64,000 nt of DNA from assembly GCF_964204865.1 (NCBI RefSeq), contig NC_135252.1:4774001-4838000 (forward strand), in the 5' to 3' direction. The position numbers and the translations under genes were made by a program. This DNA comes from Styela clava (taxonomy: Eukaryota). Numbering within the stretch: position 1 is the first letter of the stretch; each line of letters begins with the position of its first letter. A model generated the notes under the pieces. It saw only the letters and a list, made by a program, of their open reading frames with translations, made no database searches and had not been told where the DNA came from. Positions 40,336-64,000 of the stretch are shown here, one piece after another.

Positions 40336-43228
40336 TTGACTCCATGCAATGGTGATGTGCCTTCGCGTGGGCTTGAAGACAGTGTGCCACATAAAGTCTT
40401 GGTACCTGTGCAGTCTCACAATAGTGTGTCACATGCAACTCGTACCGACGCTAACTCTTCACAGAACATTGCAATGTCATCTTTTCGCCGTCGATCTTTT
40501 CGACAAAATACAGAGTTTCCGACTTCTGCCCTGCCTAGTTACCCGATTTGCACTGTTCTTTCCAAATCTATTTCTGACAAAGTATCATTGCATAGTGATA
40601 AACCAACAAATATTGAATGTCTTAATTTTAATCGGCCAAGTCAGGCCATTACAGATTTTAGTCGTCTTGAATACTCACTCTTAGCATGCAAGCAGTCGGG
40701 AGGTGTGTTCTGTTGCTCTGAAATTTCGATTAAGTCATTTATTTCGGGAATTGACGGACTGGGTTCATTCAATCCAGATTGTGGCAACGACTGGGTCAGA
40801 TTAGCAAATGTAATTTGGAAAAAGAAGTTTGCAAAAAGTGCTTTGAAAAATGCCATCCGAAAATTAAAAAAATTTTGGAACAAAAATGCAGCAAAAAGTA
40901 AAAGTCAAAGTTTAGTATTTTCGGTTCAACCCTCAGAGGCAGTAGAAACGCTTCCGTCTACTGACGGAACAATTGATATTTTCGACCATCCTGAAGTACC
41001 GGCATTCAGCGACACCATGTCGGATGACAATTTGCCCAATTTATACTCTCATTTGGAAAACGAAAAAGACAGTGAAATTTACGAAAAAGAACGTAAACAA
41101 TTTGGCGATTCACCAAAACAATCTAAGCGTAAAAATTTGATTTTAAAAAGTAACACACCGACTGACCGCAGCAGGGCATGTAAATTATCTAACGCAATAA
41201 CCAGCGAGGAAGATTTAAAAGAGGTTAGTCAAAATTTAAATATATTTTTCAATTCGAACAAAACTGATCAACCTCCAGGTCCAGTGCAAGCGTCTGTCGT
41301 GATGGAATGCGGAAATCCGCAAAGTAAAGCTAAGTTTCGAATGGATGAAAAAATTTGGAGTAACCTTTTTAAATGCGTTATTGGGGGGCGAATAAAAAAT
41401 CCGGACTGGGTCGATGTCATTAGAAATGCTATTAAAAAAAGTGACCCATACTGTTCGTATGCATTTAGATGGCATACTGTAAATTCGGGAGACTTTTCTG
41501 AACGCGTTTTCGCTTGCAGTGGACATTGTGGCTTCTCGGGCTGCAGTCGTAAAATATCTGTAATAACCTTAGAGAGGACCCTCGCATGTTCCATGTTAGG
41601 TATACGGGAAATAGGTATCACGTTGGTATTAAATCAATCCAACTTAAGGGTAAACGGCGGGAGGCGGGTGCCCTCTCCTCCGATGTTTTTCATTCTGGTA
41701 ATAGGGACGATGCTCCGTCACAGGCGGTGTTAAATAAGGCGCGATATGAGGCTAGATTGGTAAATGTCCCAGATTTCGATGATCAATGGAATTCGCTTGA
41801 CTGTTTGAGAAAATTTCAGGCCAGAAAATGCAACAATAAATTAATTCGTGGAACCTTGCAGCAAATTTCACGAGTTCCTCCAGGTATTATGTTGTGGTCG
41901 GAACAGTCTGTAAGAATATTCATCCAAAATGCTCAAATTGACATAATTTATATTTACGCTACTGGTGGGGTACTGCCTTCTGGTGCCCAAAGCCCATATT
42001 ACATTTACGAAATAGTTACTCGCCATCCCCAAAAGGACAAATCCCCATTTGCTGTTGCAACGTTTGTTACGAATCGGCACAACATTGCAAATATTTCGAA
42101 CTTTTTGTCACAATTCCGTTCTGATGTTTCCAAATTGACCAAACGATTTCCCGCAAAAGTTTTTATATGTGATGGTAGTATGGCCCTCATTAAGTCGATA
42201 ATTCAGGTAAACATGCGCGAAAGTTTAGAGGCCTACATATCACGCTGTTATTCGGTCATTCAAGGCAGTGCAAATTTGGATATGCTTTCCCGACCCTTTC
42301 TTCACCTATGCACCAGCCATACCATGAAATATTTTGAGCAATTGGCGTGTAGGGTTCCAAAAGTAAAGCGGGAATTCATGCATATATTTGGGTTGCTTGT
42401 TTGCTGCGAGGAAATTAAAAATTTTGTAAAATTATTTATCATTTGACAATATTATTGATATCCCTGAATTCGAATCTTGTTGATAATAGCTGGTCGTACT
42501 TGAAAAAGCGTATCGAAAAACAAAATATTCCACCTCCACCCGAATGTGCTTTCGATCATGAAGCATCGGGTGAACTTTTACCAGATGCAGACTGGAGTGA
42601 GAGTAATCCTTTTACCGAATTACTATATCTGGATATTGCTAGAGCTACAAAAATTGCTACTGACGCGGTTTTTTGTGGTTCTAACTCTTTTTATTGTCCG
42701 GAAGTAATGACTAAATTTAAAACGTTTCATGTACCCAAAATTTGTCTATGGGGCACTTTGCTAGTAGGTGATTTAGGCAGGTTTGGTACAACAATAGGCT
42801 ATGAAAAGTATAAGCAATTTTACGCAAAATCATCGGTCTCTAACAAACAGAACTTAGCAAAAGATAATCGAACACAGGGAATCATGGAGAAAAGTCAACA
42901 GGAGCTAAAGCGTACTCGTTTCAACAACAGGCGGTTTAAACGTCTTGACGAGATCGCTGTAGTGTATGATCAACTTCATGATTCCCTAATTAGGGAATAT
43001 CAGGATAATTTGATTGCTCGTCCCAAAAAAAGGAAAGTCGATAACAGAGACCAAATTGACCAAGAAATTGAGAAATGGGGTAAAAGATGTAGAAATATGG
43101 GTAATGATAAATCGAAAGGTATATATTTACAGCCACCGTCTAGACCTCTGAAAGCTTCTTGCCCAATAGAATTGCTTGATAATGATGTATTGGAAACGGA
43201 AATAATATGTTAGCGGTCTTCTCAGTCA

Positions 43229-44032: not shown

Positions 44033-44339
44033 ATTTTTTCGTTATATATTCACCATTTGCCTAACTCCAATTATTTTTCAGATCCATCGGCTTCATGGAC
44101 ACACAAATGATCAGTCTATTTTACCTTTTGCAGTATATGCCAAAGTTAAGGGTTTTCTCTCTCTATCGATCGTCGCCAGTTTTGAGATGAAAACCACCAC
44201 GATAGTTGGCACCTTGACGTGGTGTGGTGGCTTACTACTAAGACCACTAATTATCCAATGCAATAAGTGTGTCTTCTACCCCAAGTGTAAATGGGGGACC
44301 CTGATTATAAGACATTTTTTTTAGGGGCGAACTATGTCA

Positions 44340-45595
44340 TTTTGCTATTTCTATCATAAATTGACTAGTGGGCCATGTTTAAGCGATTATAAAAATATCT
44401 TCCCCCCATACAAACCTTTAAAACTCGCTGTATAAACACTTTATTATACGTACTACTGCTGGTCTTGTGTAAATGTGGGGCCCGTAATTTTTTGAAGCAA
44501 AAAAGATCTTTTTACTAAAATATCTTCCCCCCATACAACATTTTTCAAACTCGCTGTATAAACACTTTATTATATGTACTACAGCTGGTCTTGTGTAAAT
44601 GTGGGGCCCGTAATTGCAAGACACTCATTTTTTGAAGCAAAAAAGAGCTTTTTACTATTTCCATCATTAATTGGGCCTTTTTTAAGCGATTATAAAAATA
44701 TCTTCCCCCCATACAAACTTTTTCAAACTCGCTGTATTAACACCTTATTTTATGTACTACTACTGGTCTTTTGTAAATGTGGGGACCGTAATTGCAAGAC
44801 ACTCATTTTTTGGAGCAAAAGAGGTCTTTTTGCCATTTCTATCATAAATTGACTAACGGGCCATGTTTAAGCGATTATCAAAATATCTTCCCCCCATACA
44901 AACTTTTTCAAACTCGCTGTATTAACACTTTATTATATGTACTACTGCTGGTCTTGTGTAAATGAGGGGCCCATACCTGCAAGACACTCATTTTTCGGGG
45001 CAAAATAGGTCTTTTTGCCATTTCTATCAAAAAGTGATTATCGGGCCATGTTTAAGCCAATATAAAAATATTTTCCCCCCATACAAACTTTTTCAAACTC
45101 GCTGTATTAACACTTTATTATATGTACTACTACTGGTCTTGTGTAAATGAGAGGCCCGTAATTGCAAGACACTCATTTTTGGGGGCAAAATAGGTCTTTT
45201 TGCCATTTCTATCAAAAATTGACTATGGGGCCATGTTTAAGCGATTATAAAAATATCCTCCCCCCATACAAACTTTTTCAAACTTGCTGTATTAACACTT
45301 TATTATATGTACTAATACTGGTCTCTTGTAAATGTGGGGACCGTAATTGCAAGACACTCATTTTTTGGAGCAAAGAGGTCTTTTTGCCATTTCTATCATA
45401 AATTGTCAAGCGGGTCATGTTTAAACGAGAATAAAAATATCTTCCCCCATACAAACTTTTTGAAACTCGTTGTATAAACACTTTATTAAATGTACTACTG
45501 CTGTTTATGTATAAATGGAAAGGTTCATGATTGTAAGACGCATCTTTTTGGGGACAAAATAGGTCTTTTTACCAATTTTATCAAAAATTGACGAC
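44340..45595 (-). repeat. Inverted tandem array of the same ~185-bp unit (~7 copies, innermost ones partly deleted) in the right TIR
   Basis: Reverse complement of the 37780-39365 units (ggtctttttgccattt..., cccccatacaaactttttcaaactcgc). Confidence 0.95.
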
Positions 45596-46660
45596 TGGGA
45601 CCGGTTTAAACGATAATAAGTATCTCTTCCACCTATCCAATCTTTGTCAAACTCGTTGTGTTTACTTCCCTTTATAAGCACTTATACTTATCTTTCTTAT
45701 ACTAAGCGGATATATTTGTGAGACACTTATATTTTGGGGAGAACTGTGACTTTTTGGCAATTATTCACAGTTTTTATGATTAATCTGGCAACGCATGATT
45801 TTGCATCGATGCCTTTTTCGTAAACTCTCGCATCGCTCAATTGAAATCAGAGTTCTGGCAACAGTGATCGGCGCGTTCAAAAACGAGAGATCTGGCAACG
45901 CATAAAGCATCAGCTGATTTTGCATCGATGCATTTTTTGTAAACTCTCGCATCGCTCAATTGAAATCTGAGTTCTGGCAACAGTGATCGGCGCGTTCAAA
46001 AACGAGAGAGATGTCTGCTAGGGTAACTTCGGTCCCTTGTCCCTCCATGTTCGCTATCAAGATTAACAGTTAATTAAGATGTTTGAACAATCTAACAAAA
46101 ACTCCTTGGAGGAAGGGTCGACTAAGTTACGGAATATTTTCGGATTCGGTTAAAAATGTAGTCCATTATTAAACCACTGCTTTTTTTGTAGATTTTCACT
46201 TAGTGGACACTTAGCAAGTACGGCAGGTAATTTATAAAAAAAAAATTTAAATTAATAACAAATCAGTACAAGTCAGCCCGGGTATTCAAACATGTGATGA
46301 TTGACGTGAGAAAAAAATTTGAAGTCACGTTTAGGATATTACATTGAACAACAATGGAAAAGGTACATTGGAATCAGTCAAGCTTCAAATGCTAATGGCA
46401 TTAATGAAAAGAATATGCGACATGAAGACTGAAGTTTCCATCTGAGACATTGGAAGACGCTAAAACCTTAGACTTGATAGTGTGGAAAGCTTTCTCACAA
46501 TGCAGTAATAATGGGACATATATTTATAATATCATTATACAGGCTTTAAGTTGAACTATATGTTTAATTAAAATACCTATCTTTGCTAATAAATGCTGAA
46601 AACCATTTATTTCAATCTGCTGAGTGATTAGGGTCAGAAATTTGCTGTAGGGACCATCAC

Positions 46661-47144: not shown

Positions 47145-49458
47145 AACATCACCAATTTTGTGATAGGTAGGTACATGATGTCAACATATGAACTGAGTTA
47201 GGCCATTGGATTTTGAAAGGTGTACCAGAAATGTACATAGTTACATGAAATTCATGAAATATATATCATCCAATAAAAACCAAAATAGGTCTTTCGTTGA
47301 ACGCCAGTTGTGGTCCCGGTACCGGTATTCCAGTATTCTGTCATCCCAAGCAGTTGGAGCGCATATCCCACAGAGCACGGCGCGTTGGCAGAATCTCATG
47401 GTCTAGTGAGAATGACGTCATCGGAAACACCGCGCTCATTAAAATTTCAATGAACGATTATCAAAAATCTTGACCATGTTTATCATGATAAAAATATCAA
47501 AAAAGATGTAAAAAATATTCTATTCTCAAAACTGCTCGCGTATACAATGAAAGATATCTAGAAAATTTTAAAAAATGCAAATTTCTGCTCTGATGATCAC
47601 ATTCCCCATAAGAGCTAATGTTGAAATTGTTTTTTTTACATCACTTTTCTTTTTGCGCGTAGGATGGGTTTTTAATGAATAAGGTCTATTGTAGAAGCTT
47701 GACGGGGTGTGACCTTATGCACCCTGCTTGCTACGCAAAGACGAAGGGCGCTGAACCGTGCGCCAATATTTTTCAGTCTAAACGCTCTTAGAGTCTAGCC
47801 TATCCCAATACAGCAATGGTCCAGACAATCCTCTCCAAATTATCCCGTCTTATAACTGAGATAAGCAAACTGAAGTCCACAAGCCCACAATACGCAACTT
47901 TAAACACAGGAGAATTGTAGCCTAATGTGTCGTGAAATTATCAAGCACTTGCTCAGCACAAAATATATAATCGAGATGTCAGATGGAGCCAAATAGATTA
48001 CGGAAACAGATGACAAATACAGATAGAGATGAGATATAGATAGAGAGAGGTTTTCTAAAGAAAAGAAAATACACTATAAATTTGCCGCATAAATAACTAA
48101 CATGCAATCAAATTATATCGCTTACCGACTGTTTTTAGCCAAGGTCAACAATATATCGAATCTTTTATGTAACTGCAGAACACTGAAATAAACATGAACA
48201 AATAAGCACCACAGTAACAGTACTTAACCCTACAGCATTAATTGTGGCAATAAATATAATACCAACAGTATTTCATCCAAATAGGACTACTACATAACAA
48301 GCCAAATGCAATGAAATACAGAAAACTCACCAAGAATATTTCACAAAACAATCAAAACGCAGGACAGATTCACAAAATGCAGTTCAACAATCCAGAGTTC
48401 AATGCAGCAAATTTTAAACTATTAGCAAGTTAAATAAGCATGATACAAAGGAAACCATAATTAGCCCACTATATTTAATATGATACAGCTTTTTCTAATG
48501 CTAAATCGCCATAGAAGTAACGCATTGCAACAGCAAACTAGCTGTGCACATTTACAATTTCGGCCCTAACGCGAGCGATATAATAACGATGTAAACACGC
48601 AAATTGCAGTAGACAGAAACCTTCTCGGCTCGGTCTACAGATAATAGAGAAACACATCAAATGAGACGTTTGCGACGTTGACAAACGAAAAGATGCAAAC
48701 GTGTCAGCAATAAAGAAATAGACACTACCGGCACTGGAGATCTAACAGCAATAGCTTACTTTACAGAATATAAAAAATACATGTTCACAGGCGGCGCCGC
48801 CCCGTACATTTGTTATATTTATCCCCATTAGAATAGTGTGATTAGGCGCGTGTGCCAGTTTGCAGTTGTTTGATTGCGTTTCATTGATATTTTCATACTG
48901 TTGTAGCGTACCGACAGTCTATGAAATAATTATCCAAGTTCAGAATATCTTCCAATATGATCTGACGTCAAGTTCCCTCTCAATATTCACTCCAGGTCAT
49001 GCTATTTTATTCTATTTATTAATTATCCTCCAATGAAACGGTTAATACAACCAAACACTCCGAAGAAACGGAAAGCACACAACAAAAACAACAATACCAG
49101 GCAGTGAAATGTAAGAAAACGAAATACACCATAAAAACACTAAAGAAGTTACTTATAATTTGAAAAACACGCTGAAAATTAACTTATGACAGGCATTTTA
49201 AAAGACGATAAACAATTCTATATGTGCATAACATTTGAACAGTACTGATCATAGCTAATTCCATGATAAAACAACACTAAATGAACTGCAATGGCCCTCC
49301 TGTACTGAAACAATAATATCAGCCCACTGTCTAGCATAAAAACATTCAACAAATCCCCATCCCACAGTCACAAAACAACAAACAAACATCCCCGATCACC
49401 CACCGGAGACCAGAGGCACTCCCTCAGACACTCAAAACCAAGCATCCAATCGAAAAAC

Positions 49459-49760
49459 TGTTATGAGAATTAAGTTCAGTTATTCCTGTTGCAGTGTGCT
49501 ACACTTTGTTTATATTCCGTCATTATTACATTATCGTTCTTTGTGTTGTGATCACTGATTATCGTCAAGCGACAACGGACTGCATTTGCCTTACTGCATT
49601 AGTTACGTGCCGTTACGAGTATTAGACGGTAGTCCGATTAAGTTTGGCTATACTTAGTGACTCAATGTAATTATGTTGCATGTTCTTGTATTTAGGTTAA
49701 GATGCGTTTTTAGTTTCTTAAAGCCATAATTTTGGTTGTAATAAATAAACTGTCATAACA
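49459..49760 (+). repeat. 5' LTR
   Basis: TG..CA ends with an 8-bp terminal inverted repeat; AATAAA near 49740. Confidence 0.95.
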
Positions 49761-49784
49761 ATTTAAGAAACTAAAATCTTAAAT

Positions 49785-52700
49785 ATGGATGCATCGATGA
49801 AACCAGTGAGACTTGACCTAAATCTGAATTCTCCAAGCGCGGCAAAGGAATGGAAGCACTGGCGAAAAACATTTGAGAACTACATTGAAGAATTAGAGAT
49901 GAGTGTACAAGAGGGCCAGTCTGTGAATAAACTCAAGAGGCTAATCAACTCAGTATCTCACAATGTTTATGAATATATTGAAGATGTGGACGCTTATAGT
50001 AAAGCTATGGAAGTGCTACATAACTTATATGTCAAGACGCCGAATGAAATATTTGCACGACATCTGCTAGTTACGGCAAAGCAACAAACTGGTCAATCCA
50101 TCGACGAATTTTTACAAACTCTGCGTAATCTAAGTAAAGATTGTAATTTTAAAGATGTTTCTGCCGCGCAGTACCGCGACGAACTTATACGTGATTCTTT
50201 TATCAATGGTATTTTGTCAAATAACATCCGACAACGTCTTTTGGAAAACAAGGACTTGACTCTTGAATTAGCGTTTTCACAAGCTTCATCACTTGATCTG
50301 GCGCAACGTAATTCGTCAGCATATGAAGCATCTCGAATCGACGAATTGCAACCTTCGGCATTGGCCACTTCCGAAACCTCTTTCGACAATGAAGGTATAG
50401 TAACTGGCCGTATAACAGGGCGAAAATGTATATTCTGTGGATATAATTACCACAATCGTCAAAATTGTCCCGCACGCAATGCCAATTGCTACAAATGCGA
50501 TAAAAAAGGCCACTTTGCCAAAGTTTGCCGATCAAAGATGAATAAATCTGAAGCCTCTTCATCTATAACGGCGTCAGTAAATCCATCAGTCCACGATTTG
50601 CAATCAGCACCACGTTGTTTACTGCCGGCAACACTTCCAGTTGTCATAGCTGGTCGCAATACAACTGCGTTGATAGATACCGGAAGCTCTCTCTCTTTTA
50701 TAAACGAAAAGACTGCGAGAATGCTACGTTTGAAAATTTTGCCTTCACGGGAAAATGTAGTGATGGCTGTCCAGCATCTGCAAGGAACGACTATTGGATC
50801 CTGTTTAACTGATATGATAATTGGTAGTCGTTCATATACCAAAGTGCCTCTTAAAGTATTTCGAGGTCTTTGTTGTGATTTATTGCTCGGTCAGGACTTT
50901 CAAAGACAACATGAAAGAGTCATTTTCCCTTTTAACGGCTCTCGTCCTGAACTTCTAGTTCAATATGAATCAAAAGTATGTGGTTTAGCTGCTGCAAACT
51001 ACACCCCGGCTTCGTTATTTTCTAATCTCATGAAAAATTGTCATCCGATAGCTGTCAAATCTCGCCGTTTTGGCGCGTTAGACAAAGAATTCATCGCTAA
51101 AGAAGTTTCGAGAATGTACAACGAAGGAATTATCAGGCCAAGTTCTTCGCCGTGGAGAGCACAGCCTTTAGTTGTGAAGGATCCATTGACCTCAAAACGA
51201 CGATTGTGCATAGACTATTCACAAACGATAAACATTTATACAGAGCTAGACGCCTATCCATTGCCGCGAATTGATGATATGGTTAACGAACTTGCTGGAT
51301 ATTCCTGGTTTTCCACCTACGATCTGAAATCCGCGTATCATCAGATTCCAATATGCCAGCAAGATAAAATTTTCACTGCGTTTGAAGGCGATGGTAAACT
51401 CTGGGAATTCAATCGTATTCCATTTGGAGTGACCAATGGAGTACCAGCTTTTCAGCGGATAATGGATGAAATTGTGGAAAAAGGCAATCTGAAAGATACA
51501 TTTCCATACCTCGACAATGTAACTATAGCTGGACATACAAAAGAGGAGCATGACTATAATGTGAAGAAATTTCTCGATACTGTTAAGAAAAACAATTTAA
51601 CATTAAATGATGCAAAAACAGTATCAAGTGTACGAAAAATTAACATTTTGGGATATACAGTGGGTAATAATTCAGTAGCTCCAGATCCCGAACGCCTAGC
51701 TCCATTGAGAGAACTCCTACCTCCAACAAATAGTCGCGCTCTGCAAAGAATAATTGGACTTTTTGCGTATTATTCGAAATGGATTGTAAACTTTTCAGAC
51801 AAAATGCGACGACTCCGCCAAGCGAAAACATTTCCTTTAGATTGCGCTACAGTACAAGACTTCGAATCACTAAAAAGAGAAATCGGAAATGCCACTTTGA
51901 GCTCAATTGATGAGCATGTTCCATTTGTTGTAGAATGCGACGCATCGGAAATTGCAATTTCAGCCACACTGAATCAAGGAGGGCGACCAGTGGCATTTTG
52001 GTCGCGTGTTCTACAGAAGAGCGAGAGGTTTTATCCTGCTGTAGAAAAGGAGGCAACGGCAATCATTGAAGCTGTGCGAAAGTGGGCCCATTTTCTGGCA
52101 AGACGTCCATTCACTATCGTGACCGACCAGCGATCGGTTTCTTTCATGCTAGATAACCGTCGTCGATCCAAAATAAAGAATAATAAAATTCAGTCCTGGA
52201 GGCTGGAACTAGCCTCTTTCAGTTACGACGTTAGATATCGACCTGGAAAACAAAATGCCGCACCTGATGCTTTAACACGTTCTACATGCGCATCAGTTTT
52301 TCCCACGTCATTGCAAGAAATACACGAAGGTTTATGTCACCCGGGCGTCACAAGACTTCTACATTTCGTCAAATCGAAAAATTTGCCTTTCTCGACTGAT
52401 GACGTTAAAAGAACTTGTAAATTATGCCGCGTATGTGCGGAACTTAAACCGAAATTTTATTCCCCACCGTATGGCACATTAATCAAGGCCACACGGCCAT
52501 TTGAAAGACTGAGTATGGACTTCAAGGGACCTTTGCCATCGCGGACAAAGAACGTATACATGCTAACCATTGTCGATGAATATTCTAGATTTCCATTTGT
52601 ATTTCAATGCACCAATCTTTCTTCCGCTTCAGTAATAAGCTGCCTTGAAAAATTATTTGCTCTGTGCGGACTACCTGGTTATATACACTCTGATAGAGGA

Positions 52701-53408
52701 AAATCTTTTATGTCTGCGGAACTAAGGGATTTTCTGCTGAAACGTGGTGTAGCCACCAGTCAATCCTCGCCTTATCACCCAATTGGAAACTCCCAAGTTG
52801 AACGATTCAATGGAATCATATGGAAAGCCGTGCGTTTATGCTTGCGTACATATAATCTGCCTATCACACATTGGGAATATGTGTTACCGAAAGCTCTTCA
52901 ATCGCTCCGATCTTTGCTTTGCACAGCAGTCAATGCAACTCCACATGAACTATTTTTCAACTTCCAACACCGCTCTCCCAGTGGTCATTCAATGCCTACC
53001 TGGTTGTGCGAATCAAAACATGCTTTTCTGCGGAAATTCGTTCGTTCGCACAAAAATGACGATTTGGTTGAACAAGTGGAACTAAAAAATGTGAATCCCG
53101 CATATGCTCGAGTTCGTTTTTCTGATGGGCGGGAGAGTACGGTATCGTTAAGAGACTTGTCCCCTTGTCCAGTCTCCCAACGATCTTCAAGTCACGATAG
53201 AGAGTCTCAAGACTTTTCTCCTGAAGATAGTGAAACACGTACTAATGCGTCACCACTAAATGATGGATGCAACGTCGACCGAAATGAAGAGTTCAAAATT
53301 GAAATTCCAATTAGCTCTGACAATGCTAATAATGAAAGGATTGCCACACGTCGTTCAACTCGAACTAACATTGGTGTTCCACCAGAACGCTATGGTTTTG
53401 AAATATAG
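49785..53408 (+). CDS. Gag-Pol polyprotein, 1207 aa (Gag, protease, RT, RNase H, integrase)
   Basis: Two Zn knuckles (CIFC..H..C, CYKCDKKGHFAKVC), protease LIDTGS, RT (DLKSAYHQ, PFG, YLDN), RNase H (CDAS, EKE, TDQ), integrase HHCC plus D-D-E (SMDF, HSDRG, VERFN); Gypsy domain order. Confidence 0.97.
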   Translation: MDASMKPVRLDLNLNSPSAAKEWKHWRKTFENYIEELEMSVQEGQSVNKLKRLINSVSHNVYEYIEDVDAYSKAMEVLHNLYVKTPNEIFARHLLVTAKQQTGQSIDEFLQTLRNLSKDCNFKDVSAAQYRDELIRDSFINGILSNNIRQRLLENKDLTLELAFSQASSLDLAQRNSSAYEASRIDELQPSALATSETSFDNEGIVTGRITGRKCIFCGYNYHNRQNCPARNANCYKCDKKGHFAKVCRSKMNKSEASSSITASVNPSVHDLQSAPRCLLPATLPVVIAGRNTTALIDTGSSLSFINEKTARMLRLKILPSRENVVMAVQHLQGTTIGSCLTDMIIGSRSYTKVPLKVFRGLCCDLLLGQDFQRQHERVIFPFNGSRPELLVQYESKVCGLAAANYTPASLFSNLMKNCHPIAVKSRRFGALDKEFIAKEVSRMYNEGIIRPSSSPWRAQPLVVKDPLTSKRRLCIDYSQTINIYTELDAYPLPRIDDMVNELAGYSWFSTYDLKSAYHQIPICQQDKIFTAFEGDGKLWEFNRIPFGVTNGVPAFQRIMDEIVEKGNLKDTFPYLDNVTIAGHTKEEHDYNVKKFLDTVKKNNLTLNDAKTVSSVRKINILGYTVGNNSVAPDPERLAPLRELLPPTNSRALQRIIGLFAYYSKWIVNFSDKMRRLRQAKTFPLDCATVQDFESLKREIGNATLSSIDEHVPFVVECDASEIAISATLNQGGRPVAFWSRVLQKSERFYPAVEKEATAIIEAVRKWAHFLARRPFTIVTDQRSVSFMLDNRRRSKIKNNKIQSWRLELASFSYDVRYRPGKQNAAPDALTRSTCASVFPTSLQEIHEGLCHPGVTRLLHFVKSKNLPFSTDDVKRTCKLCRVCAELKPKFYSPPYGTLIKATRPFERLSMDFKGPLPSRTKNVYMLTIVDEYSRFPFVFQCTNLSSASVISCLEKLFALCGLPGYIHSDRGKSFMSAELRDFLLKRGVATSQSSPYHPIGNSQVERFNGIIWKAVRLCLRTYNLPITHWEYVLPKALQSLRSLLCTAVNATPHELFFNFQHRSPSGHSMPTWLCESKHAFLRKFVRSHKNDDLVEQVELKNVNPAYARVRFSDGRESTVSLRDLSPCPVSQRSSSHDRESQDFSPEDSETRTNASPLNDGCNVDRNEEFKIEIPISSDNANNERIATRRSTRTNIGVPPERYGFEI

Positions 53409-53418
53409 ACGGGGAGAA

Positions 53419-53720
53419 TGTTATGAGAATTAAGTTCAGTTATTCCTGTTGCAGTGTGCTACACTTTGTTTATATTCCGTCATTAGTACATTATCGTTCT
53501 TTGTGTTGTGATCACTGATTATCGTCAAGCGACAACGGACTGCATTTGCCTTACTGCATTAGTTACGTGCCGTTACGAGTATTAGACGGTAGTCCGATTA
53601 AGTTTGGCTATACTTAGTGACTCAATGTAATTATGTTGCATGTTCTTGTGTTTAGGTTAAGATGCGTTTTTAGTTTCTTAAAGCCATAATTTTGGTTGTA
53701 ATAAATAAACTGTCATAACA
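53419..53720 (+). repeat. 3' LTR
   Basis: Direct copy of 49459-49760, preceded by the PPT. Confidence 0.95.
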
Positions 53721-54907
53721 ATTTAACAATCACAGTCAGACAACTGCACCCTGCCAACCACAGCACCAGCTATCAGGCCACCCAAAAAAGAACAGATCGA
53801 CAGTGTCACAGCGCCCCCAGTGTCTTCAATACCAAAATACCAAATATGGAAACGACATCACATGACATCATTTAACAGATAAAACAAGGGTCGTCCACTG
53901 TATTAGCCTACAGACAGAACGTCAAAATCTGACAGTTCTGGTAATTATTATTATGGTTCTATCATGCGGAAAGTGGGGAAGAAGAAATAGCGAATCAGAT
54001 CTGACTCGTGAAAGGTTCAAAGCCACAATTCCCGTTTGTACTTTTTGTAAAACTAAAATACAATACTAAAGGGAAATTTCTTTATGCTCAACTCTTAGTA
54101 ACTTCATGGATCGAGTAAACTCATCCGTTTCGGGACGAATTACCAACATTAATATATAGCCTATAGCGTTGTGATGTTGCTACTTCCTGATTCAAATGAC
54201 CTTTTAACCACAATGTGTTTTTGATTCTCTGTGTATGTTTAGTTATGAATAATGCAGTGCTTCCCGTGGCTTTTGCCTAATTTTACCATTTTATAAATTA
54301 TCGCGTAAAGTTATGACAGGGCAGTATCAGAGTTATTATGTACATAGTAAAGACTGAATACCGCCGAACGGAGCACAGATAGTAAGTAATCAGATAGTAC
54401 TGAACTCATCCCAGCCCAGTGTAATTATCTACAAGCTGAAAAGACAAGAAAGCCGCGTACTTATACTTTGTTTTTATATAGTTTTTTTTTAAATAGAAAA
54501 GTCGAGGATCTGAAGCCAAACAAGTTGTTGTCGTTATATTAACATACAGTTTTATAGAAAACTTCATCCAAGAGTCGAGGGAATTTTTCATTGATTCGCT
54601 CCCGTTCAATCAGCACATTGAACATCAATAAAACTGAAGCAATATTTCTAAGCTGAAACGATTCGATTGTTTGCTAATGGACCAACACGAACTGTCAACA
54701 AGTAACACCTTCCTGTCAACAAGTGACACCTTTACCACCTATGCAACAGAGTTAGTATTAAATTATATATATATACTATTTGCTGAGTCCCCTTGATTCT
54801 CTTTCGTTCACCACACTCACTGAAGCTATTTACGATGGGTAGCTATTTTTTTAACACCGTCAATATAGTTCTTCCTTCACATATGGCACTCATCACTGGT
54901 TTCCCGC

Positions 54908-55112
54908 AGTATCCGGAAAATTCGCCGTAGGAAATTTCGCCGCATAGAAAAAATCGCATGTGCATTTTGCTGTTAAACAAGTGTTCAAAACAGTTATGTT
55001 TATAGGGTTAGGGTATGCTCTTAAATAAAGAATCTTTTTTAAATAAGGCGATTCCTCATATGGCGGTTTTTCTTATGCGGCGAAATTTCCTGCGGCGAAT
55101 TTTCCTAGAACC
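54908..55112. mobile_element. Mutator-type MITE
   Basis: Inverted ggaaaattcgccg repeats; flanks gtttcccgc / gtttcctgc (8 of 9 TSD). Confidence 0.78.
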
Positions 55113-55175: not shown

Positions 55176-58100
55176 GTTTTATGAACGGTCTTTCGGTGAT
55201 GGCTTCATCATTGGATTCGGTATTTTGGTGTTTTTACTTATGATATTTGGAATTTTATCAAACAGCTTGGTAGTTATTGTGATTCAACGAACACGAGAAT
55301 TAAAAAAGTAGGTACTCCTACCCATATACGCTATACCGGTAAAAAAATCATTTTGTTCTTATTTATATAACATCTCATTTAATCTGAAAAAGGCATTTAA
55401 TATTTTCTGCGCCAAATTATTATAATAATGAGTTATTCTTATGCATTAATATGTAGGAAATTCACACCATAATTTCCAATGTTTTTGTTAAAAATGGTCA
55501 CTTGCTGAGGCTGCAATACAATTTAAAACAAACTTGATAAACTCAAATTTAATTTTCCGACTATTGTATTCTAAGATCGACGTTTGTTTATAGGTCTCAC
55601 TTCATGACTATTATTTGTTCTCTTTGCATCTCCGATTTGATGTCTGCAATGATCAGTCCATTTTTCTGGTATCGAAGATCATTGGGTTATGACATTTGGA
55701 ATCTGCCAAACTTCTTCTGTGAGGTATTATAAGTTTTTATGATTTGAATACTGAGAGAATATGAATATTTGAGCAATTTGTCATTTGAGTAATGTGACAA
55801 ATCTTACTATCCAAGAAAAGTTAATTCATATTTCGAATCAGCTCAGTTAGACCGGGTTTACAATTTTGTTTGTAAATACGTGTTTTTCCAATTATTAAAT
55901 TTACATTAACTTCCATCCTATATTAGAATCTACCATCTTTTGGCAAGTCCCACACGACAAGTATTCCAATCCCATGCAAAACTGTAGAAATAAAATAAAA
56001 AGAAATGTGAGGTGCCAGAATAAAAACACTTTTTGTTTATACCGTCCGTTTCATCTGTTGTGAATGTTACGATATTTAGGTATTACTCATTTATTTCCGT
56101 TTTACTTCAGCTATTTTGGGCGGTTGATATCATGACATCATTGTCAACATCTATGCATGTACTGAGTTTTGCTATTCTACGATACATTGCTATTCAACAC
56201 CATTCTACGTTTGTAAAAGTCTCATCCAAAATAGTCAATGTAAGATATTATAAAGTTTTTAATGCTTTGAAATCGTTACTTTCATGGAAGGCTTGACCCT
56301 TTTTTATCTCACTATATTGAATATGATGACTAATCATAGCGTTTTTGTTTACCATTTGAATTGATCAGACTTCATCAGACATCGGCAAACTACGGCTCGC
56401 AGGCCAAATCCGACCCGTTGAGTAATTCAATCTGGCCCGCTTGATGTTGCCACAACAAAACTAAAAATTCTGATGTTAAGCTATGAAATAGCTCGAGGAA
56501 TATTATGAAATTGCAGTTAAATATAGTTTTGTCAGTTGGCTCATTGTTTTTCACTTTAGCTTTTGTGACACTGTAAATATTTTTTCTAAAATGTAACTTT
56601 TTATGTCACCTTACATGGCCGTGAAGTCTAGGTCTAGGTGGGCACAATTTTTGGCCCTTGGTCCCCTGCTTCAAATGTAAAACAACATGGCAACATTACA
56701 CATCCGTAGAAAAAGTAAAATTGACTTGAAAACCAGCTTCCTGGAGTAATAGCATTAGTCAGAAAATGTTACATGAGTTTTTGTAAATAGTATTTATCCT
56801 GAAATCTACCTGTGACTCATTTAACAAACTCTGACTCTACGACATGTTATCAATTTTGTTCTGATTTACACTTATTCCCGGGTAAACTTACAGAACTGTC
56901 CATAGTCGAGATAGGAATTAATAACAGGGGCAGTCGATTGTGTAGGGTAGTTTCTAAACGGGGTTAAACTGGAGAACCCTCAACTTTTCATTAGGCACAA
57001 AATAAACTAGGTCAAGAATCAAATAATGCTATATCATTTTTATACTATCTTATTTCATGATAGATTTGGATTGCCTGCATCTGGCTGATTGCATTTAGCT
57101 GTGGCTTCATTCCATACTTCATTTTTTTCGAAGCTGATCCAGGCGTTGAGAGAAAAAAATCGGAGCATTCTTGGCCAGCATGTACATTAAAACTTGACTG
57201 GTAATTTGGTTGATTATATTACGTTAAAACAGATTGAGAATTGCATTAAATATAATAAACAAGTCACGCGATGAAACTAAAACATTGTAAAAAAATTAAT
57301 AACAAGCAGTATACATATAACCATGGCGCATGATTGTTTTTCCGGCGTTAAATGAGCTGATAAACTATATAATCTAAGAAGATTTTTAGAAAGCTATTTT
57401 GCATACGCATATTGGATTGGCTGTTCATATTAAATGGTTGTTTATTCATACTAACTAGATGTACATTCATATCACTCTGGTCATCCTTTAAACTAGTGCC
57501 AGGTATAAAAGCTGAGTGGTCTAATTTCTAATCGCCAGACGCGGTCAAATACTGATAAATTTGGCCTATAGTTTAAAGTGAAGTGTAAACAACATAAACG
57601 ATGATTGGGTATAGTGCCTTCATGTTTGGTATTTAGTTGATATAAAAAGTAGCTCGAAATCTTCAGTAGAATATAATTTATTTGCACAGGCTCAAGAGTT
57701 ACAACATCTACGTCGTAGTCGGCTTTACTGTTTTCTTTTTTGTGCCGATGATTCTTATTGTTGTGATGTCCATTTTAATTGCTCATGCGGTTCACGTGCA
57801 CTCCGTTACGTATGTGGTTACCAACGACCAATCTCTCGATAGAAGGATGAAAAAGAAGAAACAAGCAGTTTTACAATTAGTTCTTATTGTAGTGTTATTT
57901 TTTACAGGATATATACCATATGTTAGTAAGTATAATTTTTGTGGTGTTTATTTGTCAATTCATTATTCACGGGCACCATAATGACAATCTCCATTATGTA
58001 TGTTCACTCAAAACGAAGTTACGACTCCTTATTTGAAGGCAAACATGTGGCTTATACACAGATGTTGGCAAACCATTGAAACGCTGGAAGTCACACTTGG

Positions 58101-58666
58101 GTCCACTGGAGCAAAAAAACAACAACAGATACTTTATTGAAGACGAACAGCTTGGGGGAAATGAATTCGGCAAACGGCGGTTATGGAAAAAAGCATTTTA
58201 GGCAGTAGACATTTTAATACAAGACAGTGATTCAAACGCTTACTCGCATATTCTATACTAGTAAGGCTTCTGTATCATAATTACCTATTAAAATGTATAG
58301 ACATAGTTATATGACAGAATTTTTATCATAAATTGCATCAAAACAGTTAAAAATGACTTTACAGGTTACGAAACCTGGTCAAGACATCACCGCAAAGCTG
58401 ATGCTGCTATTGACCACTGGTTTTGCATAGCGCAGTACTTGTTTTTGAGAGCATCAGAATGTTTGAACCCCGTGGTTTACTGTCTCAGTTCTTCAAAAAT
58501 GCGCAAACACATCGGAGTATTCTTACAGAAAACTTGTGCATTCTCAACATCCAATATTAATACATCTACTTCAACACCAGGAAGTTCGACATCACGTTGT
58601 GGGGAACAAAAATCTCGTACTGCAGTATTTAAGAACAAATTTTTGCCGGTTCGAGATAAAAATTAA
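55176..58666 (+). CDS. Orphan class A GPCR, copy 4 (exons 2-7; first coding exon not located)
   Basis: Exons 55176-55307, 55594-55723, 56111-56239, 57064-57200, 57690-57925, 58365-58666; same phases, open frame. Motifs SLCISD, WAVD, LRY, WPAC, FFTGYIP, LRASECLNPVVY. Confidence 0.9.
56376..56660 (+). repeat. hAT-like terminal fragment; second copy at ~61373-61650
   Basis: ggcaaactacgg..ggccaaatccg(a/g)cccgttg.. is shared by both over ~280 bp. Confidence 0.65.
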
Positions 58667-59640
58667 AACAATAATATTGAATGTGATCAATACGTCTAAA
58701 CGTATAAGTCAACTCAATTTGATAAAATCCAGCATTCAAAACTGACAAACAGCCCGATTTAATTTGGAGGAATCCGATCACGTTAAAAAGACGGAAGTGT
58801 TATATCAAACTTATGGAACTAATGGCATGTTGCTCCACATTGAATGCGCATTTATCGTTATTTATCCTTGCCTTGGTTGATAGAATGACAAATGTGTTTT
58901 TTAAATTTTTTTGAAATAAATTAATCAGGCAAGGAGGTAAAAATTACAGCTTAAGATCACCATTTTGATAATTAACAAAAAGCAAAAGTGTGAAAAAATG
59001 CTAAACTGTATTCCGTGCATTGCTCCAAATAACATTATAGTATTGCTTACGTATAGTATTATTACTAATATTTATTCTTTATTCTTTACTCATGTATCGT
59101 TTGCCTGAAAAGCGTCGTATTTCCTGCAAATAAGTCGCTTTTCTAGACCCAAATTTTTGGCCTGATTTGGGGAGGGATGGGGGGGGGGGGGAGTCTTATT
59201 GGGCAAGTATTATAATTTTCATTTTTTCGGGGTTGACTTATTATTCAATTCGGGCCATATAAATGAATCGGCGTTCTCGCGCTGTGAATCTGGAATTTCA
59301 ACGCTGTGAATATCATGTTATCATGTTTGAAGTTGCCGCATTCGCGTGTGCATCGCGACTGAACGGCTATTACCGATACACGTGGGAGTGCAATTTGTAA
59401 AAATTCTCAATTGTTTTTGTCAGCGTGATCTCTTATTTAAGCCATAAACATCTTTTATGTCAGCATTTATTCTCGCTATATCACAAATTTCTCTCAACAT
59501 ATGTTTTGTGCCACGAGGACACGATAAACACTTTATTGTTCCCAAACAACCATGGCACTTGAATAGCGCATGATTACCACCAAGTATATTCATATCGATG
59601 ATAAATAAAGCACAACCGGTGTTAGCAAAACGATATAATT

Positions 59641-59684
59641 TGCCGACGTTTCGAATTTCTATTCAGAAAAACTTCATCAGGGCA
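59641..59684 (-). ncRNA. Mirror copy of the minimal hammerhead ribozyme on the minus strand
   Basis: Exact reverse complement of 59714-59757. Confidence 0.8.
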
Positions 59685-59713
59685 TGATATGGAAAATTGT
59701 GCTTACCATATCA

Positions 59714-59757
59714 TGCCCTGATGAAGTTTTTCTGAATAGAAATTCGAAACGTCGGCA
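59714..59757 (+). ncRNA. Minimal type I hammerhead ribozyme (Penelope-like-element type)
   Basis: tgcc-CTGATGA-stem II (ttct gaat agaa core)-GAAA-CGTC-ggca. Stem I is tgcc/ggca, a palindromic ACGT replaces stem III, and cleavage is predicted after GUC at 59753. Confidence 0.8.
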
Positions 59758-62700
59758 AATTATATCGTTTTGCTAACACCGGTTGTGCCTTATTTATTAT
59801 CGGAAAATAAGTGTTGCAGCAACAGCTCAGACATGTTTTTTAATTTGCAAAAATACGAATCAAAGCAACAAATCGCAGATTAAATTGATCACTATTAAAT
59901 TAATGAAGCAACACATTTTGTTTCTGGAGCCGGGATTTTATAGCAGATCGTGGATTTTTATAATGAAGATAACGAATTCGCAAGAGCGCAAAAATATGTA
60001 TCAAAACCAAATATAATCAGGCAGTTTATCTCACATTATTATGTCTACAGATTGACGTGTTACGTCGAGCACAATTAGATTAAAATTGAAAGACAGTTCG
60101 AATTCCCTTAGTTGTCATGGATTGAATATTATACCCTACAAGAAAAAGTCATTATGGGTTATTTTAACGAATGCGCAAACACCTCGATCGCTCAGAAGCC
60201 GTTGCATGATAATTTGAGATTCCGATTTTACTGCCCGCGTCTTATTGGAAGGTTATATGCAGAAAAAAAACATTTTTCAGGCTTAAAAACGGGCCTCGTC
60301 TTATTTACCGGGTAGACTTATTCGCTGGGAAATACGGTAATTCTGGAATTGTTTGTAAACTACTTCCGGCTGGAAAATAGTTCTAATTCTAAGTCAGGAC
60401 AGCTGTAACGACGTGTTTCGATTTGATGATAAGATTTTGACCAGTTTGTATAAATTTTTATCTTTAATCAAGGGGATTCACATCGAAAATCAGTTAAAGC
60501 TAAAAAGAATAATAAAATGACATTGCACCGTTGCATAAGTATACAACATGCTTAATGAGAACGGCAAAATTTAAAACCGCCGAGACACGCAATCAGCGTA
60601 TATAATTCAATGAAATGAAAATGTTTTATCATCAAGCATCTTCTTATACGTTATTATACTCCATCCAGTGTGAACTGGGTTATCGAGCAGTGTTCTGGAA
60701 ATGTCGGGCAGGAGGGCGATATAGTTGGTGCACACAAATTTTAGTTGAATTGTTTTCTGTGGTAATCAATTCCACTTTGCCTCTGCTTTTTGAACAACTG
60801 CGTCGCACTTCCACCTGCGAGACTCACGTTGATAAAAACCACTATCCACTGACGGAATCTTAACACTGTGTAATCAGAATTTCAAACAAACAAGACTGCA
60901 ATGCTCAAATAAATGGACGCGAAGGTCAAATGACTACGCCAAGTCTGGTTTCAACTAGTGAGGCACTTTCATTAGTACTGTACGGTTTATACATGCTATA
61001 TATATATATTGGAGTGAGTAAAATTCGATAAATTTTAGTCGAGAAAGAAGGTGAAACGACCATACCGACCATATAACTTCAGGTGAAACTACCTATTTTC
61101 GCCGATAATTCCGCCCGTTTAATATCCATGTGACGACAAATTTTTTCACAGTGAGACATATATTTTGCACTCACCATTTTGTGCTTGGTGTAAAAATTTA
61201 AATAGGTAAAATAAGCCGCATTTCATTTGAGAAATACCAATTTGAAATGTTTATTCCCAGGTTAGGAAAAATCTGAGAAATATTTGATTTGACGACGGTA
61301 TGAGGTGAAATTGCTCTGTGACCAATTTCGTGATATGCATTTTATTGCATTGGTCTGCTTACATTCTAGAACTGAAATGGGCAAACTACGACCCTCGGGC
61401 CAAATCCGGCCCGTTGGTAATTCAGTCTGGCCCGTCTGATGCTGCCACAACCGAATTGAAACGAAATTTCGATGTTTTAGCTAAAAAATAGCTCAAGGAA
61501 TTTGTTGAGATTGCGATTAAATATAGTTTTGGTACAAGGCTTATAGTTCTCCACTTTCGCTTTTGTAATCCTGTAAATATTGTTTATAAAATGTAACTTT
61601 TAACGTCACACTTACATGACCAGCCAGTCTAGGTGGGCAAATTGTTTGGCATCTACTACTTCCATCTTCAAGTACTACTTGAAGGTTTAAACGCAGAAAA
61701 GCGATTTTCCACGCGAAAAAGTAGTCTCGACAATAACAAGACCAACAAAACAACAACGATTTAGCAAAACGATCCATATGGCCATTCCGTGTTCAATAAT
61801 GTTTTTGGCTATAGGTTGGCTTCGGGTTTGGTTTACCTCAAAGAATACAGGTGGCGTAAATTATAACGACGCTAAATTGTGGTCGAACATGTGTAGGATA
61901 CTTCTTTGTTACGAATTTTCACCAAGTCATTGATCCGTTCAATTGCACATTAAACCATAATATGAAAGAAACTATTTATATACGTCAGACACGGTTAAGC
62001 TAAACATTACAAAATTAAATAGTGTTTGTCAAATTAATCATTAAAAATCAACTGCACGATGTTTGGTTCGGGAAACACGGATTCTTCCTGAACATGAACT
62101 GCAAATAATTTGTTTCTTGATGCCGTAAAATTGTTTATAATTTAACAAATTGTTTCAAACAAGTAACTACTAAATTTCAGTCCATTTATTTTTCTAGTTG
62201 GCGTCGCTTGAATGACTATGACCAAGCCTACACGATTTATCTTTTACGCGCTTCGTTGCCATTTTTAAGCGAACTGCCTACATTTATTCTTTTATGGTCG
62301 ATATTATGTGACGATCAAAAATTTATACGCTTGAATCACCTTGAGAGCCCAAGTTGTGGATGGGCTTTGTAAGGAAATAAGTTTAATTTGTGTGCTGTAG
62401 CTGTAGAACATACAAGGGAGACATAAGCTTAGAACTTGCGGCATCATAGTCATAATCAATAAGAAGTGTAGATTTTTTTGAAATTTGTAATTTTCTAGAA
62501 ACTACGCTCTGCATGCACTGCCCTCTCAAAAGGATAATCAAAAGTTATTAATTTTCAAAATTGGAATACTAGAAATTCAACTTCACAGCGTTTTAGCGGA
62601 CTTGCGTTTGGGGAGGGACTGAATTCTATCGAGCCCTAAAATACAATCCCGAACTCGATCTAACATTAACTTGTTTTATGAAGATTCGAACATTTAAAAT

Positions 62701-63843: not shown

Positions 63844-64000
63844 CAGGGGTGGGCAAGATTTTTAGAGCAGGGGCCAATTTTGCTCATCTAGACTGGCGGG
63901 CCATGTAAGTGTGACGTAAGGGTAACATTTTATGAACAATATTTACAGTGTTACAAAAGCAAGAGTGGAAAACAATAAGCTTTGTGCCAAAACTAAATTT
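63844..64000 (+). mobile_element. Probable left end of a hAT-like element running off the window
   Basis: caggggtgggcaa..gggcc terminus motif preceded by gtatagac; other end not visible. Confidence 0.4.

Follow-up and report, generated by a model that had tools for sequence, protein, structure and literature searches.

Probable self-priming by a Gypsy retrotransposon of Styela clava and its animal relatives without a chromodomain

The choice of primer is a basic trait of LTR elements, and the primer for the minus strand must end just downstream of the LTR. Elements of the Tf1 group are said, in the title of one study listed in PMC4600332, to require a stem-loop in U5. In Tf1 itself, the first 11 bases pair with the primer-binding site (PBS), RNase H making its cut between bases 11 and 12 (PMC7175516; this and the other PMC-numbered sources are cited for individual passages). 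Self-priming has been described for Tf1, Tf2 and Tj1 and for the Tf1/sushi group from fungi to vertebrates (PMC4600332, PMC6317226, PMC7175516), and is predicted, from complementarity between LTR and PBS, for the plant elements Tcn1 (Gypsy) and TAR/Houba/Osr-1 (Copia) (PMC6317226). Passages of PMC3601003 tie the trait to chromoviruses, and Skipper elements without a tRNA site are discussed in PMC5006619. The experimental demonstration is that in fission-yeast Tf1; elsewhere self-priming has been deduced, mainly for chromovirus kin and for some plant lineages. Animal self-priming as such is not new, being known from the vertebrate members of the Tf1/sushi group (PMC6317226, PMC4600332).

The Gypsy element described here, from Styela clava, probably uses part of its own RNA, and not a host tRNA, to prime the synthesis of minus-strand DNA, and belongs to a distinct, animal-wide Gypsy clade; the case is built on sequence comparison. 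Like Tf1 and Tf2 (Schizosaccharomyces pombe), Tj1 (S. japonicus) and the Tf1/sushi group, the clade has no tRNA site and a PBS complementary to its own LTR. It differs from Tf1/sushi in carrying neither a chromodomain nor a Tf2-type SH3 and in a Gag that is not detectably related to those of two chromodomain elements, and from Tf1 in the length of the pairing (a helix of 13–19 bp across families, against a primer of 11 nt), in the frequent presence of a poly(A) hexamer and in a reverse transcriptase (RT) that is mostly of YxDN type. Tcn1 and TAR/Houba/Osr-1 resemble the clade in that self-priming was there, too, deduced from LTR–PBS complementarity, placing the trait outside Tf1/sushi before; their hosts, in contrast, are plants, and Tcn1 is a chromovirus and TAR a Copia element. 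What appears notable in the clade is a self-complement without a chromodomain, together with an apparent relation to Mag. Our literature search, which covered neither Repbase and GyDB entries nor several key papers, found self-priming reported for no animal Gypsy clade outside the chromoviruses. Self-priming is sometimes noted in Repbase entries, so it may quite possibly have been mentioned before. Term searches of three surveys of invertebrate and fish Gypsy elements (passages of PMC6238403, PMC8556966 and PMC11117352) returned no primer-site terms.

The window (the whole 64,000-nucleotide stretch analysed, positions 4,774,001 to 4,838,000 of contig NC_135252.1, assembly GCF_964204865.1) contains a complete and young Ty3/Gypsy retrotransposon at 49459–53720 on the + strand, the strand of all element features given below. 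Its two TG...CA LTRs (49459–49760 and 53419–53720) are each 302 nt long and differ at two positions. Between them lie a leader of 24 nt (49761–49784), a single open gag–pol frame of 1207 aa (49785–53408, with its ATG at 49785) and, read directly from the sequence before the 3′ LTR, a polypurine tract (53411–53418). A domain search of the open reading frame (ORF) identified Gag with a zinc knuckle, protease, RT, RNase H and integrase, in that order, and returned neither a chromodomain, whose absence the initial annotation had correctly asserted, nor env; the best relative among solved structures is Ty3 Gag-Pol. The RT catalytic motif reads YLDN (51507–51518), Asn replacing the second Asp as is typical of the clade. 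The element thus combines the LTR termini, polypurine tract and gene order of Ty3/Gypsy, and its family has the corresponding 5-bp target-site duplications, seen in 7 of the 10 copies with both ends (two of these share flanks). At least 16 LTR-plus-leader copies at 94–100% identity make up the family (40 scored of 122 candidates in the 377-Mb host genome); as these copies are young and carry 5-bp duplications, some primer must work.

The LTR end is placed at 49760 because the 3′ LTR and the target-site duplications of other copies fix that boundary. The leader holds no tRNA-type TGG, the first TGG occurring at +26, within the start codon. Instead, the predicted primer-binding position (49762–49776) is the exact 15-nt reverse complement of LTR bases 49708–49722, a predicted self-primer segment whose 3′ end would be 49722 and whose register is the same in the 26 families considered below. 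Pairing begins one nucleotide from the LTR boundary: base 49761 is unpaired, as is its counterpart elsewhere (a Watson–Crick pair at leader +1 is found in 0 of 25 families), and the helix runs from 49762. On all of these points (the missing TGG, the leader length, the complement, its distance from the LTR and every coordinate) the initial annotation proved accurate. Its further proposal that 49777–49782 pairs with 49697–49702 survives in part, in that the pairing exists; it does not exceed chance (p 0.10 in this element; mean over 26 families 4.15 nt, against 3.91 nt expected), and the bases of 49777–49782 can alternatively pair inside the leader, so that this stretch, which had served to place the expected transcription start near 49697, is at most a possible second arm. 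None of 5000 dinucleotide-shuffled LTRs reached a 15-nt complement (the shuffle maximum was 13), and a complement of at least 15 nt to the preceding 302 nt was present at 20 of 9082 sampled positions of the window. The fold of 49697–49784 has a z-score of −3.97 and alters when the start-codon region is added. A short hairpin, GCCA...TGGT (49723–49736), starts at the first base past the primer and is the predicted mark of a cut site at 49722|49723. Across the 16 5′ copies of the window family the leader is identical throughout, and the complement is perfect in 12.

The same arrangement recurs in relatives within the host genome. A Gag search fetched 40 loci, 26 of them in-clade (Gag about 42–74% identical). 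For 18 in-clade loci, which form four families each with its own leader sequence, the LTR pair and sister copies served to set the LTR ends; a leader–LTR complement of 13–20 nt is present in 16 of these loci, and the other two show a single leader change. The remaining eight in-clade loci comprise a sixth family (L076, 15 nt), three further copies, two decayed old relatives and two loci without a 5′ end. Two old, decayed relatives of the window family (L061 and L062, G000:C6:9093352-9100852 and C8:16047237-16054737) have an eroded primer helix. By contrast, the 11 distant loci with a TGG site have a self-complement of only 5–6 nt; ten of them are of tRNA-Ser(GCU) type, their PBS 12-mer being listed as such in the supplements of PMC13524379, and so combine a tRNA PBS with the absence of the self-complement that distinguishes the clade. 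The last three of the 40 loci, also distant, yielded no LTR pair. Other Gypsy lineages of this genome with TGG- or TGA-type sites likewise showed a self-complement of only 5–7 nt. An abundant 7.2-kb Gypsy family (L276, L277, L280 and L285; 32% identity), with many open frames of 1306 aa, has a TGG site 12 nt from the LTR end.

Metagenome contigs extended the comparison beyond one genome. From 504 relatives we kept 80, 38 of which include the gag start; 30 of these were scored, the other eight being L101 (5′ LTR lost), L108 (partial sequence), L146 (treated separately) and L150, L153, L154, L155 and L164 (no recognisable LTR end). The cross-family test covered 35 loci in 25 families, five of them from S. 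clava, with LTR ends taken from the LTR pair in 11 and from a motif in 14; adding L076 gives a set of 26 families, 6 from S. clava and 20 from metagenome contigs. Leader positions +2 to +14 form on average 12.8 of 13 Watson–Crick pairs with the family's own LTR, compared with 8.9 with the LTRs of other families (25 families; the own-LTR register was picked for maximal pairing, and the cross-family control followed the same rule). The own LTR was strictly best in 20 families and tied in 5, and none of 100,000 permutations reached the observed advantage. The helix begins at leader +2 almost always across the 26 families and so sits, in almost every one, just downstream of the LTR, where a minus-strand primer must end.

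The sequence of the helix changes while its pairing is kept. Each position from leader +7 to +13 shows three or four pair types among 25 families; a run of two, three or four T at the leader start is matched by an equal number of A in the primer; and in one locus (L118) both sides of a single pair differ from those of its family members. Of 338 helix cells in the 26 families, 333 are Watson–Crick, 5 are mismatches and none is G-U, compared with 40 G-U among 255 predicted pairs of the adjacent loop (the families being related, such cells do not count as independent events); the difference fits a primer copied into its binding site and not a purely structural helix. The check for compensatory change suggested at the outset thus came out strongly in favour of pairing, which is conserved with compensatory changes in 26 families and absent from tRNA-primed relatives. 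The surroundings of the helix are regular as well: RCCW follows directly after the primer end in 25 of 26 families, a hairpin is predicted to begin at the base just past the primer in 19 of 26 (the rate in shuffled loops being 15%), and the loop between the helix arms is short, at 23–68 nt, in 24 of 25. In 25 of 26 families a G:C pair is fixed at primer −10/leader +11, exactly 10 bases from the primer 3′ end and regardless of how long the T-run is; it may act as a ruler for cleavage or for the binding of RT.

Upstream of the primer, no conserved TATA or start motif was seen in the 26 families. A splice acceptor at this place (cis or spliced-leader) was considered as a clade-wide feature and rejected, since 9 of 26 families have one, where shuffles give 7.4 and reach as high a count in 92 of 300; the window element has an acceptor-like site at 49695|49696. 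In L146 (Ga0126373_10036354), whose LTR is split over the contig ends, the leader pairs over 9 nt with the unspliced LTR and over 13 nt with a donor–acceptor joint, and a TA microsatellite lies between the GT donor and the strong AG acceptor. A splice-built primer is possible in this single case. Acceptor-like sites upstream of the primer occur as well in L121, L131 and L108, the neighbours of L146 in the tree.

If the element does prime itself, transcription would start at or upstream of about 49708–49710, so that the 5′ R region would contain the primer segment. Bases 49708–49722 would then fold onto 49762–49776, with the short hairpin forming directly behind. Cleavage of the RNA at 49722|49723, for which the most likely agent is the RNase H of the element itself, by analogy with Tf1, would leave a 3′-OH. 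From this end RT would make about 39 nt of strong-stop DNA, copying from 49761 back to 49723, before jumping to the 3′ LTR copy. Plus-strand synthesis would later copy the primer into the primer site and impose strict complementarity at the DNA level; with changes in the primer copied into the binding site in this way, a strict complement without G-U would be explained. Where the primer segment holds a poly(A) hexamer, as in about half of the families, the helix may mask the 5′ LTR signal as a second job. The proposal of the initial annotation, that an animal element without a chromodomain primes itself independently of tRNA, is best described as supported at the sequence level, by the pairing in 26 families and by its absence from tRNA-primed relatives.

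Among the other explanations, the one that survives best, while still unlikely, keeps the primer self-derived and takes it from the 3′ LTR copy at the RNA 3′ end or from a second packaged RNA. The 3′ LTR does contain an identical 15-mer (53668–53682), covariation and the lack of G-U would fit any self-derived primer, and the poly(A) hexamer present in the segment in half of the families would put it near the RNA 3′ end. However, the fixed hairpin and the 23–68-nt loop suit an intramolecular fold of the 5′ end, and cutting the 3′ copy would presumably delete sequence needed for the strong-stop jump. Tf1, moreover, uses its 5′ end (PMC7175516).

Less probable again, and in our view improbable outright, is that the helix only hides the 5′ LTR's poly(A) signal, or folds the RNA for packaging, while something else is the primer. 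In 13 of 25 families AATAAA or ATTAAA does fall within the paired segment, yet it lies outside the helix, in the loop, in 4 (among them the window family, whose two overlapping AATAAA hexamers are at 49740–49749) and is absent from both in 8, and pairing is equally strict in all three groups. A structural helix should also tolerate G-U, of which the helix cells hold none, and the helix fills the only possible place for a minus-strand primer, no other primer site having been seen.

Priming at the leader by a fragment of a host tRNA or by another small RNA, with the LTR match secondary, we consider very improbable. Half-tRNA primers are known in Copia lineages (PMC6317226), and the host tRNA set was examined in part, leaving the tRNA-match check of the initial annotation partly answered: an Rfam search scored 63 of 33,143 candidates, three scanned loci gave Lys, Cys and Trp genes, and direct comparison of the leader with three tRNA types found 4–5 nt of complement. 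Against a host primer stand the lack of TGG in the leader and the distribution of the 15-mer, which has 70 exact matches in the genome, 19 outside these elements and none of those 19 in a tRNA gene. Each family's leader, furthermore, tracks its own LTR and not a common host sequence; the six self-complementary families of this one genome have six different leaders, and therefore one host RNA cannot serve all. Separately, the locus L265 (2202–2275, G000:C10) holds a tRNA-Cys/tRNA-Trp array in which one copy at a Trp position has the anticodon TCA and is called SeC by ARAGORN, possibly a mutated Trp copy or a UGA reader.

Chance matching in AT-rich DNA is suggested by the composition of the 15-mer (only 2 G/C, with 13 genome matches for its reversed pattern) and is refuted by the cross-family test, with the shuffles, the fixed register and the absence of the complement from tRNA-primed relatives pointing the same way, so that its probability is negligible.

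Self-priming being the preferred reading, we examined where the clade belongs. An RT–RNase H tree was built on 57 rows, with one short row left out. In it, all 27 self-complementary rows fall in one clade of 43 rows on a long branch (support 100/100), apart from 10 tRNA-type rows. The clade RT usually reads FGVTNGV and YxDN; among 120 homologues the motif was DN in 99 and DD in 12, and was not parsed in 9. The same Asp-to-Asn change in the Ty1 RT slowed polymerisation 223-fold and stopped transposition (PMC2148107). The window family has a YxDN RT despite its many young copies. At the protein level, homologues with named hosts are known from cnidarians, molluscs, crustaceans, an aphid, a nematode, an ascidian and a shark, and a search of IMG/VR returned no relatives of the clade.

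A chromodomain or Tf2-type SH3 (GPY/F) was found in 0 of 20 relatives, while two control elements from IMG/VR have both; a search of the S. clava genome with the Tf2-type SH3 gave no matches, for its controls either, and so is uninformative. Constraining the clade and the two chromodomain elements together was weakly rejected (AU p 0.043, on a long branch and with neither element being Tf1 or sushi). The best RT–RNase H tree groups the clade with the tRNA-Ser families at a support, 73/83, that is not firm, and with unnamed references. Clade Gag has matches in 5 of 5 own-genome tRNA-Ser families (E 1e-21 to 1e-28) but none in the chromodomain elements, while the RT of the tRNA-Ser families is about 30% identical to that of the clade or less. 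From the missing chromodomain and SH3, the RT grouping and the Gag results, the clade would work like Tf1 without being a chromovirus by the features tested, and the self-priming trait likely arose separately from that of Tf1/sushi. On these comparisons the clade looks Mag-related. By their features the own-genome tRNA-Ser families are probably Mag-type, and our best guess at a name for the clade, from size and Gag type, is Cigr-1 of Ciona. The ORF of Cigr-1 is close in length to that of the window element, and the Cigr-1 Gag is of echinoderm type. Cigr-1 is listed under Mag in supplement 1 of PMC6238403, and the Mag lineage (A, B and C clades) is, like the clade described here, compact, with short LTRs and one fused gag-pol ORF (PMC11117352).

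We advance a broader version of this reading tentatively, judging it possible but doubtful as a whole: a large Mag-related Gypsy clade, spread from cnidarians to sharks, would have dropped tRNA priming independently, and its YxDN RT would use as primer an internal piece of RNA that is often the poly(A)-signal segment, is not necessarily the RNA 5′ end and in some families is assembled by splicing of an LTR intron, as is possible for L146. A separate, young, animal-wide self-primed clade would mean repeated invention of independence from tRNA, would lead one to expect that its members evade silencing by 3′ tRNA fragments, and would explain how annotation tools that seek a tRNA site come to miss or downgrade such elements. 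From the covariation, which is strict, together with the fixed motif at the cut site and the YxDN active site, predictions that are exact and can be tested may be drawn on how an RT makes its own primer.

The right junction of the window copy is aberrant. The element is inserted in a host dispersed repeat, whose left part lies at 49268–49458 and which continues at about 53725–53895; at the junction (53721–53727) there is no 5-bp duplication, the first 6 bases are the first 6 of the leader, and 8 of the first 9 equal the leader start, while empty-site copies of the repeat are without the extra bases. The window copy looks like a one-ended integration that retained primer-site DNA. In Tf1, copies of the PBS stay on the cDNA end (PMC11042837), comparable to the leader bases at this junction; PBS-derived bases at cDNA ends or junctions are described for both Tf1 and HIV-1 (PMC11042837), and with HIV-1 being tRNA-primed such copies are not specific to self-priming. 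The junction would show copying of the primer site and not the identity of the priming RNA, and this single fossil could instead stem from gene conversion.

Elsewhere in the window, an ORF at 43214–44032 matches a Ulp1-type peptidase C48 and a PHD finger, a pair that often belongs to DNA transposons, and is adjoined by a 185-bp tandem repeat at about 44290–45700. Exons of a rhodopsin-family GPCR gene (7tm_1) lie at 57670–58666, as suits an animal host. The intervals 59596–59802, 54915–55105, 56378–56655, 61374–61650 and 63879–64000 hold a near-perfect inverted repeat of 100 bp, an inverted repeat of 43 bp and dispersed-repeat copies, MITE-like in character.
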